DNA of 62,756 nt, counting the filler, from Hausera hauseri (Eukaryota): NCBI GenBank assembly GCA_046269625.1. It is 13 parts of 13 records of this genome, joined end to end, with 100 filler letters (N's around TTAATTAATTAA, not from the genome) between each part and the next. Parts side by side here need not be neighbours in the genome. Positions count along the whole stretch, not along the records: positions 29,419 to 35,001 come from JBJURY010226297.1; 12 more parts are not named here. One strand, 5' to 3'. The position numbers and the translations under genes were made by a program. Of the stretch, positions 32,039-35,001 are shown piece by piece. How positions within the stretch are numbered: the first letter of the stretch is position 1; every line of letters begins with the position of its first letter. Below the pieces are notes generated by a model. The model saw only the letters and a list, made by a program, of their open reading frames with translations, did not search any database and had not been told where the DNA came from.

Positions 32039-35001
32039 ATTAAATACAATAATGCCCATAAGCAACTGATCTGTTTTTCTCAATCCACTGTCATTTGTCA
32101 TCGAATGGATCCAATGCTTTCAACGGCCCGATGTACATTCTCAACTACAGAACCTAACTCGATGTACAACTGTAAGAGCCGATAGTGAACAACATAGTTT
32201 GATTTACGTTCATGTGTCAGCAATAATTTCTTAACTTTTGAAACAGGAGGAAATATATTAATTGGAGCTAGAGACAGTTGGTCCAACTTATCATGTTTGT
32301 CAGCAGGAATGCTTAAGTCAACTTCAAAGGCTAAGCCTCGTGTGGTGCCCACAGTGGCCAGTGCTCTATGGCCCAATTGGTTGGACATGGCCGGGCGCCC
32401 GCCAACGCCGCGTCGGGCCCATAGGCAGGCCCCGATCTCCCTCCTCGAAAGTGTCTCAGATTGCTGAGAAAATTTCCACTCTTTCAAGTGTTCTGGAAAG
32501 TATCATATTCCTGATGATTTGCCGGATGGTGCCACCTCGACTAATGTCGATTCTACCACAATGGCTATCAGACAGACTCAAAATTGCAATCTGCAAAATT
32601 ACATTTGTACATTGTCAAACAGTCTTTCATCTAATCTTTTACACGGACTTCCTTCAGTTTTGTCAAATAGCTCGAACTTCTCCAATCTCTCACTTCTAAC
32701 TTCCAATATTATTGATCAGACAACAAATAATGTCCTTATAGGACATTATAGCCTCATCTTCCCCTCGAGAAAAAACGTCGGAAGCGGTACATTTGGGACG
32801 AAGAAGTTAAGTCCAACATGGATCAGTTGTCAGAGGGAAGCAAGTTGAGCACTCATGTTAGTCCATAAATTATCATACCGAACTCAGGATTTTATGGTAC
32901 TAATTATTACTAGTAATTGCAATTTTGTGAATATTCATGCAGAAAGATGGTCACTCTTTTGATACGTCAGAAATACTTTGTGTACATAACGTGTATTTTG
33001 ATCGGCTAGTTAGTTAATTATCTGTGACATTATTGTAATCGACGTATCCTTTGACACAAACGTTGTTGACGGATATACTTATTTACGGCATGTTTTATCA
33101 AATATATCAATTATTTTCTATATTACATTGCTGGTTGCGGGTTGAATGATTGCATAGCCTCTATCAACAAATTTGTAGTACTGTATATTATTTTTTTGTT
33201 TGTTTTAATAATGAAAAAAATAAAGATTTAACCATTTTGATTTGTGAATTGATTTAATTGATATCCAAGAATTTACTGTTCAGTTGTGAATTTTCGTATT
33301 GCATCTACTATTTCAATTCGAGTTTCCTGCCTTTTGGGATTTTGGAATTTTATTTTAATCACAATTCTTTTGAATTCTAAATTTATCGTTGGTCGGATTG
33401 AATTCATACAACCACCTGTCATTTGTGATAATAACGGATTAACTATATCTCGTTTTTCCTTAACACAGTCAATAAAAGGTAATTGTTGGATCAGACTAGT
33501 CAAAACTTCCTCATCGTAAATCCAAGTCAGATTCGCAAATGGCAGAGGTTGTGATAAATCCCAACCGTACAAATTATTTACATCTATGTACAAGAGACTG
33601 GTGCTCTCATCAGCGGTAACCCTATGCTTATTTACAAAAGTCATACCGCCGCGAATTCCTGATCGAAAGAAATTGTATATCTCAGGATCCTGAATGAGCT
33701 CAATCTTACAGTGACTGGATTTCAGTGCAGTTGCCCAAGATAAACCGGGAATTGAAAGGAAATTAACCGCCTCTAAACCATCCTGCAACTTAATCTCCTT
33801 TCTAAACCGTTCAAAGATATCGCCAAACAAGTATACGTCGAGCATCATGTATACCAACATATAATCTAAAAGACAACTATAACTGTATTTCAACCAAGCC
33901 GTTTGTGCTTCCTGATAATCACTATCACTAAAACCATCTCATTTCGATGGCAACTCCTTAATAGACTACAAGTCACTAAACGATTTGGCTGCAGTATATG
34001 GAAAAATACCTTTTCCCTTAATAATGTCAGAAGGAAAAGCCGACTCAGTAAAGGGATAGCTATCTAAGTTGGAAGCCAAAGTCTTAAGTGAAGCCCGATA
34101 GAAACTGCAACGAGTCGAGAAATCGAATAGATACCGACTTTTTGTATGAACACTGTACATTTGCCTGCATGGTTAAAAATTTCTCTGTTGTTTGAGGAAT
34201 AGCACTCAAATTCCAAGTAGCAAATTTACTTAGTGCGTGTTTTAAAATATGATGGAGATCGCAGCCACGCAAATTATGGAAAATAACGGGAAAATTTATG
34301 CCTCATCTGTCTAGCCAAGTTACACTTATTACATGCTGGGTCTAAGAATTTACCTGTAACATGACAGTGATCTATAACAAATTGTGAACCGTTTTCGTGG
34401 CAAAGATAACATGATGTAGCATTTTTAAACCAATACTATTTAGCTGAATTTCACGGTGTTATCGGTTTTTTAGCATTGTCATACCATGGAAAAACTAGGG
34501 TTTTAATAATTTCCTCTAATAAATCCAAGAACTCAACTATTGAATTTTCACCAACAAATTGTCGATATTCAATACCGGTTGATGAAACTAACAATAGACC
34601 AGCTGCAGCAGGCAAATGAATATTCTTGACTTTATCGTTAGGACACAGAACAGATTCAAAGTCAGCATATACGACGAAAGGAGGAGTTATTGATTTTGCC
34701 CAGTCCTTAAACTCACAAAACGTATTTTCTGTCATTTTATACAAAGTCATACATTTGACAGAAGAATTGAACATGGGTAAATGCTTAAAATATCCCGTAT
34801 TATACTTAAAGTCATGTAAACATTTTTTACACCAATGTTTACATTGGATTCTGAGTTTATTACTGTCCAAAATAAATATATATACTCTCGCCCAAAAATG
34901 TATGGTAAATCACCACCATATTGCGGTCTGCTATACAAATGTATTATTTCATGTTGAGCCATTTTCTTTGAAAATGTAAAGTTAAAATTGACTTTGGACC
35001 A
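32039..35001 (-). mobile_element. Maverick/Polinton pPolB pseudogene (family B), split by a 1.1-kb insertion and internally deleted
   Basis: YADFES, DHCH, FHNLRGCDLHHI, FLDS, KGIFPY, GIRGG, IDVNNLYG, FEVDL, NYVVHYRLLQ, then a jump to the C-terminal ALDPFDDK...AYGH. The frame VKEK|RGLA is restored when 32341-33452 is removed. Confidence 0.92.
32341..33447 (+). mobile_element. Discrete insertion: head element copy 2 (32341-32450) plus host-like 3' CDS and 3' UTR cargo
   Basis: Flanked by CCTCG (32336-32340) and TCTCG (33448-33452). Termini TGTGG...CTATA. Cargo includes PHLPLEKKRRKRYIWDEEV...stop, an AT-rich UTR and AATAAA near 33219. Confidence 0.85.

Follow-up and report, generated by a model that had tools for sequence, protein, structure and literature searches.

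The window, by which we mean the whole 62,756-nt stretch of Hausera hauseri DNA that was analysed, is a chain of 4–6-kb contigs joined by N-linkers, and the insertion described here lies in the contig at 29419–35001. The interrupted gene, in two parts on the minus strand, is that of a protein-primed polymerase B (pPolB) of Polinton/adintovirus type. Its upstream part (33453–34891) is decayed (PF03175, E 2.5e-8; 58% to the best homologue; tblastn map). The downstream part (32043–32340), placed by comparison with homologues, has undergone a further internal loss: within 32043–32125, the match leaps from homologue residue 943 to residue 1210 at about 32120, and other copies of the family diverge at 32120/32121. 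Between the two parts, all on the plus strand, lie a GC-rich head of 110 bp (32341–32450), an ORF-like body segment (32451–32848), an AT-rich stretch resembling a 3′ UTR (32849–33250) and a tail (33251–33447), flanked by the left (32336–32340) and right (33448–33452) copies of a short target-site duplication (TSD).

Pieces of pPolB are found in four contigs of the window. The family is very abundant in X1, one of the four runs (X1–X4) whose contigs were used below, with a summed depth of the order of 1e5 against about 5.5 for single alleles; given this abundance, landing in pPolB needs no special explanation. In a third pPolB, at 44030–45228, the 5′ part is inverted relative to the 3′ part. 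Two Polinton-type segments (46857–48597 and 60291–62017) are 80% identical and in opposite orientation; one of them has an ATPase frame, and an integrase frame adjoins the segment at 60291–62017.

A GPCR of the rhodopsin family and a glutamine synthetase whose nearest matches are animal enzymes, both in the window, show that the host is an animal. The synthetase is 55–68% identical to the 120 matches listed, those with names being mostly from invertebrates and none of them close; it is intact and intronless (5214–6305, minus strand), in a contig with identical 77-bp ends (4463–9615). The contig with the insertion carries intronless, broken RCC1-like frames (weak Pfam match, E 0.0018) and a Thr/Asn-rich frame at 29580–30850, which may be another retrocopy. 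A GC-richer segment at 31080–31345 has AATAAA at 31260 and, at 31316, a motif starting with TGG, behind which comes a run of pyrimidines; it resembles the end of an LTR plus a PBS or, on the other strand, a PPT. Repeat arrays are present at 35701–39865 (an 8-bp unit repeated about 523 times, the skew between strands being extreme) and at 40117–43838 (74–87-bp units in tandem and inverted arrays).

The insertion and its target duplication

Kept apart, the two pPolB pieces sum to 51 residues between motif A and EVDL. Among 120 uninterrupted homologues, this spacing was measurable in 107 and is 48–52 in 93 of these, 50–52 in 21 of the 25 best-ranked measurable ones and 51 in the best-scoring one. 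A preliminary description of the locus held that the insertion cleanly splits the gene. Locally this is right, but the gene as a whole also has upstream stop codons, frameshifts and the internal loss near 32120. The interrupted polymerase is dead for these reasons besides the insertion, and this copy of the element is probably of no consequence to the host.

The left junction reads ...AAGCCTCG/TGTGGTGCCC (32340/32341) and the right junction ...ACTATA/TCTCG (33447/33448). As had been described, CTCG is identical on both flanks and, read as 5-mers, the left copy CCTCG and the right copy TCTCG are one transition apart, the last four bases being exact in both. Joints between the two flanks were collected from the contigs of X1–X4. 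Eleven of the 12 insert-spanning joints listed skip a net 1,112 bases and the remaining one skips 1,148, with 47 further rows beyond those listed; the main empty site, which joins 32336 to 33449, is represented by 11 X1 contigs. These empty sites are paralogues of the high-copy Polinton-type pPolB, not an orthologous allele. As the paralogues contain the left-hand 5-mer once, the duplication is either 4 bp and exact or 5 bp with one transition. The 1.1-kb insertion is real, it is a one-piece event, and one copy of the repeat is a true target duplication; both insertion and duplication had been proposed at the outset, and the comparison with uninterrupted pPolB copies bears them out. The other three runs reproduce the X1 profile at roughly 1/55–1/80 (X2), 1/500 (X3) and 1/1000 (X4) of its depth, with the single-copy middle missing; they may thus represent carry-over and were not counted as independent.

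A TSD of 4–5 bp, as read in this one member, is within the 4–6 bp expected of an LTR retrotransposon or solo LTR. Another reading, which we regard as unlikely, is that an enzyme of LINE type, while reverse-transcribing a host RNA at the target, switched template to an abundant 110-nt RNA at its 3′ end and so left a chimera of head and cargo. Chimeric retrogenes have been listed as having a complete 5′ part, a 3′ part that can be 5′-truncated, both in the same orientation, and a flanking repeat (PMC2104539). The insertion shows these features, i, ii, iv and v of that list. The ten bases to the left of each boundary agree at 7 of 10 positions, as a decayed TSD of 10–11 bp could have left them, and contigs from X3 and X4 fit seven further letters on either side. 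However, in the majority of X1 empty sites the sequence is that of the left flank as far as the 5-mer, which disfavours a long TSD, and the secure 4–5 bp compare with the 10–20 bp of LINE chimeras.

The 110-bp head and its copies

A second copy of the head (27114–27223, plus strand), 83% identical to 32341–32450 without gaps, lies directly behind the DTDS motif of another pPolB. Further copies appear as loose ends in X1, counted here from 12 of 110 rows. On the outer side, 66 contigs end just before 32341 and 24 just before 32340, at least 90 in all, and the agreement among their flanks (0.37 and 0.41) is at the level simulated for unrelated sequence (0.37 and 0.40); the first base of the element is therefore the T of TGTGG, and the sites of insertion are many and different. 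The inner loose ends fall at 32450 (18 contigs), 32451 (16) and 32446 (5), at least 39 in all, and the boundary between head and body is fixed within these 6 bp (32446–32451). Behind the head, agreement is 0.51, 0.59 and 0.55 at 32450, 32451 and 32446, respectively, and the first two values exceed the simulated 0.41–0.44, which indicates that the bodies differ and that some recur. Head depth in X1 is 2400–6400, which is not a copy number, and a safer lower bound comes from counting contigs. The head represents a real multi-copy family with variable bodies, documented by the sequences of two members, both ends being known for one of them, and by short contigs, essentially from one run.

Helitrons have TC...CTRR ends, insert between A and T and leave no TSD, and the TG start, the preceding G or C and the TSD do not fit a Helitron. 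No tRNA gene was found by ARAGORN, and no Rfam match at E ≤ 1 over 28000–36000, which gives no sign of a tRNA, an snRNA or a ribozyme. Further Rfam searches with the head gave a best E of 0.41 (16.5 bits against a gathering score of 71) and another of 4, and the head folds no better than shuffled sequences (z 0.49 to −0.64). These results speak against a LINE-type chimera, for which the TGTNR start would, in addition, be chance. As a check on whether the head is a Polinton terminus, 96 loci from relatives of the pPolB, 634 kb in all, were compared with it by blastn, without a match; the test is weak, these relatives being distant and mostly without termini. Exact head patterns had no match in viral_contigs or in metagenome_contigs, and the Gypsy-like pieces of the window do not match the head. 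No PPT, PBS or autonomous partner was linked to it, nor were the integrase pieces of the window. A bacterial promoter scan was empty and is not relevant here. The 3′ end of the first head contains CCTCG (32443–32447), the 5-mer of the left target duplication; since the second head has CCTAG at the corresponding place and a different target, this is probably a coincidence.

The TGTGG start, whose TG is precise across copies, fits the TGTNR pattern described for the ends of both Gypsy LTRs and Ginger transposons (PMC2836005). The head might accordingly be read as the terminal inverted repeat (TIR) of a DNA transposon of Ginger-like, integrase type which, in the manner of Pack elements, takes up host DNA, although we hold this to be improbable. 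The TIRs (50–180 bp), TGTNR ends and TSDs (4–5 bp) of Ginger2 all fit the head, and GingerRoot, with TIRs of 100–150 bp, carries gene fragments. A TIR would explain the sharp inner boundary, a few recurring interiors would give the agreement seen behind the head, and the contigs used cannot tell a head at the left end from an inverted one at the right end. By contrast, the targets CTCG and GGAC agree with the preferences of neither Ginger1 (CCGG/CCGT) nor Ginger2 (RTATAY).

Bodies, tails and right ends

The body of the first element has no ATG at its junction with the head. It contains an open frame of 126 codons in sense to the head (32468–32848), a length reached in 16 of 1000 shuffles. The homology search that had been proposed for the cargo region (32451–32868) gave no usable match and identified no host gene: the frame has no match in Pfam, in the Atlas or by word search, and the two phmmer matches of a full scan are artefacts, being translations of tandem repeats. 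Depth in X1 is close to that of a single allele over 32751–33101 (5.5–11). A sister copy of the body, on a 147-bp X1 contig of depth 30, differs from it at 4 of 147 positions (2.7%, 95% CI 0.7–6.8%), and the few sister copies suggest that the body has moved or been duplicated again. A depth peak at 33180–33257 in X2–X4 is of AT-rich low complexity, with loose ends on both sides, and was discarded.

The tail, which ends in ACTATA (at 33448 if the TSD is 4 bp), is present in a few sister copies and is not family-wide. Its depth in X1 is 32–181, lower than that of the head by a factor of tens, its variants occur in up to 11 contigs, and it does not match the second element (score 20, shuffle mean 20.8). 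The suggestion that 33225–33447 is a constant U5-like end consequently failed. One frame of the tail scores as coding-like, but its 62-codon open frame is not significant (p 0.12–0.53), so a second gene was rejected, and its Atlas matches are all under 0.9. The tail has no similarity to the head on either strand, and among the two joints listed, strand-changing or go-back, none links tail to head, which gives no sign of a second head behind the tail; the first element contains no second head, direct or inverted. For a Ginger-like transposon, one would have to suppose either that a few terminal bases are all that survives of the right TIR here or that a cryptic end served instead, and the right end lacks an inverted head even though the TSD is intact. 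Nor do the sister copies show a strand-changing joint from tail to head, among the two listed.

No A-run is found at the right end, in agreement with the absence of a poly(A) tail noted earlier, and the sole AATAAA of the body (33219, in the AT-rich stretch) lies about 230 bp inside. The lack of oligo(A) or a microsatellite at this end counts against a LINE-type chimera, which, for its part, needs no CA end. Depending on the TSD boundary, the end reads TA or AT, with no intact CA. With the 5-bp boundary, four of the six bases of the terminal ACTATA agree with the inverse of the left end, both mismatches being C to T, which would favour an LTR-type origin; with the 4-bp boundary, none of the six agree. 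The 4/6 match is also reached by 30 of the 992 six-mers that the body contains (a post hoc p of about 0.03), so the proposed decay from CCACA was not confirmed. Against an LTR-type origin, a decayed end needs three C-to-T changes within seven bases, which is unlikely at the divergence of 4/147 from sister copies. On sequence alone, ACTATA may or may not be a decayed CCACA.

In the second element (27114–29318), the cargo is an intronless, frameshifted prosaposin-like gene (27224–28990, plus strand), recognised by its Sap domains (SapA, E 3.6e-6; SapB, E 3.8e-5 and 1e-6) and its translation, which has a signal-peptide-like start. The ATG at 27231 is 7 nt behind the head, the stop codon is at 28811 and AATAAA at 28962. 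The cargo is thus in sense to the head in both elements, and this, together with a start 7 nt before an ATG, is unlikely if a Ginger-like transposon captured DNA at random. There is no continuation of pPolB up to 29318, and the right end of the element was not found within the contig; as a control, the pPolB profile detects a 25-residue remnant elsewhere at E 2e-7 and nothing behind this element. Candidate right-end repeats at 28990, 29270 and 29300 were rejected, with no pPolB behind them. The lack of a visible right end suits a Ginger-like transposon, whose right TIR would lie beyond the contig end.

Another source of sense cargo would be a head that is a small self-contained element with a putative internal promoter and no terminator, which inserts within or ahead of a gene, is transcribed onward into that gene and has its read-through RNA retroposed (3′ transduction). 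We consider this very unlikely. It would explain the exact 5′ start, the sense orientation and a body that runs past AATAAA, but the second element has no relic duplication around the head alone (the flank AGGAC is not repeated after it), and a poly(A) end is missing.

Possible origin and comparison with known systems

The precise TGTNR end, the 4–5-bp duplication and the absence of poly(A) point to an integrase-type enzyme, which, judging from these features, is our best guess for the insertion. An RNA step is indicated by the sense cargo in both elements and by the start only 7 nt ahead of the ATG. The lack of introns is weak evidence for RNA, since the window's reading frames for glutamine synthetase and CAP have no interruption either. 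It had been proposed that an integrase moved head and cargo as one solo-LTR-like unit. The one-piece insertion, short TSD and precise left end agree with this, whereas of the two further features that it implied, the constant U5-like tail is wanting and the CA-type right end is unconfirmed.

Tentatively, and short of calling it probable, we favour LTR-type machinery acting on a host RNA. The head would be the U3-like end of an LTR-type element, likely joined to a copy of a host RNA during reverse transcription by a strand transfer at a fixed point, such as the U3/R border would be. As the tail is not common to the family, the copied RNA itself would supply the R-U5 side, with a non-canonical right end, and the body of the first element would likewise be of host origin. 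What resulted would resemble a solo LTR and was likely either integrated in that form or left behind in it. Chimeric retrocopies are among the products of LTR machinery; they lack poly(A) and can move again, although the published ones retain both LTRs with the cargo between them (PMC5131818), and copies with the same head here share no constant R-U5. A wider reading, which we think rather doubtful, is that the genome contains hundreds of one-headed shuttles, in which a 110-bp TG-ended leader is joined at a fixed point to diverse host mRNAs and inserted by an integrase, with a second LTR, a TIR and a poly(A) tail all lacking; some of these mRNAs would be taken from their extreme 5′ end onward. 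If true, this would be an undescribed retrogene route: cargo would stand in for the R-U5 half of an LTR and would come already equipped with an upstream element.

The elements that give rise to retrocopies in organisms other than mammals are known only in part. In the open-access literature, judged by titles and the beginnings of abstracts, we found no description of a one-headed family like this one. With Ginger2/TDD, the element shares a TGTNR end, a 4–5-bp TSD and a terminal repeat of about 100 bp (PMC2836005), and with GingerRoot the gene fragments inside (PMC6839031). Unlike Ginger2, GingerRoot and Pack-TIRs (PMC2836005, PMC6839031, PMC8277862), it has no inverted repeat at the other end and no linked transposase, and the target preference differs; GingerRoot cargo also retains introns, with a TSD of 6 bp (PMC6839031) compared with 4–5 bp here. 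U6/L1 chimeras and the fungal WEIRD-MGL MINE likewise join a constant, complete 5′ part in sense to variable 3′ parts (PMC2104539). In contrast to these, the TSD here is 4–5 bp instead of 10–20 bp, there is no A-rich end, no LINE 3′ part was seen and the head matches no known RNA. In Adineta vaga, capture by Penelope pLTRs similarly lets a short terminal repeat mobilise unrelated host sequence in trans, with a TSD proven by empty sites, but there the cargo lies between direct or inverted pLTRs, introns are retained and TSDs are 8–10 bp (PMC3846280).

Because each known route fails one tested defining feature, we file the insertion in none of them: a family with a single constant end, fusion at a fixed point and complete host coding sequences breaks one defining feature each of two-LTR capture, Pack-TIRs and LINE chimeras. 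Tentatively, we see the insertion as working most like LTR-mediated retroposition. Retrocopies made in this way in metazoans (Tan et al. 2016, PMC5131818) have an LTR on each side, and cargo has taken the place of the internal ORFs, with variable switch points, whereas here a single 110-bp head has a fixed boundary, with neither a second LTR nor a constant tail. What the two have in common is mRNA-like cargo on the end of a mobile element, a lack of poly(A) and the possibility of renewed multiplication as non-autonomous units.
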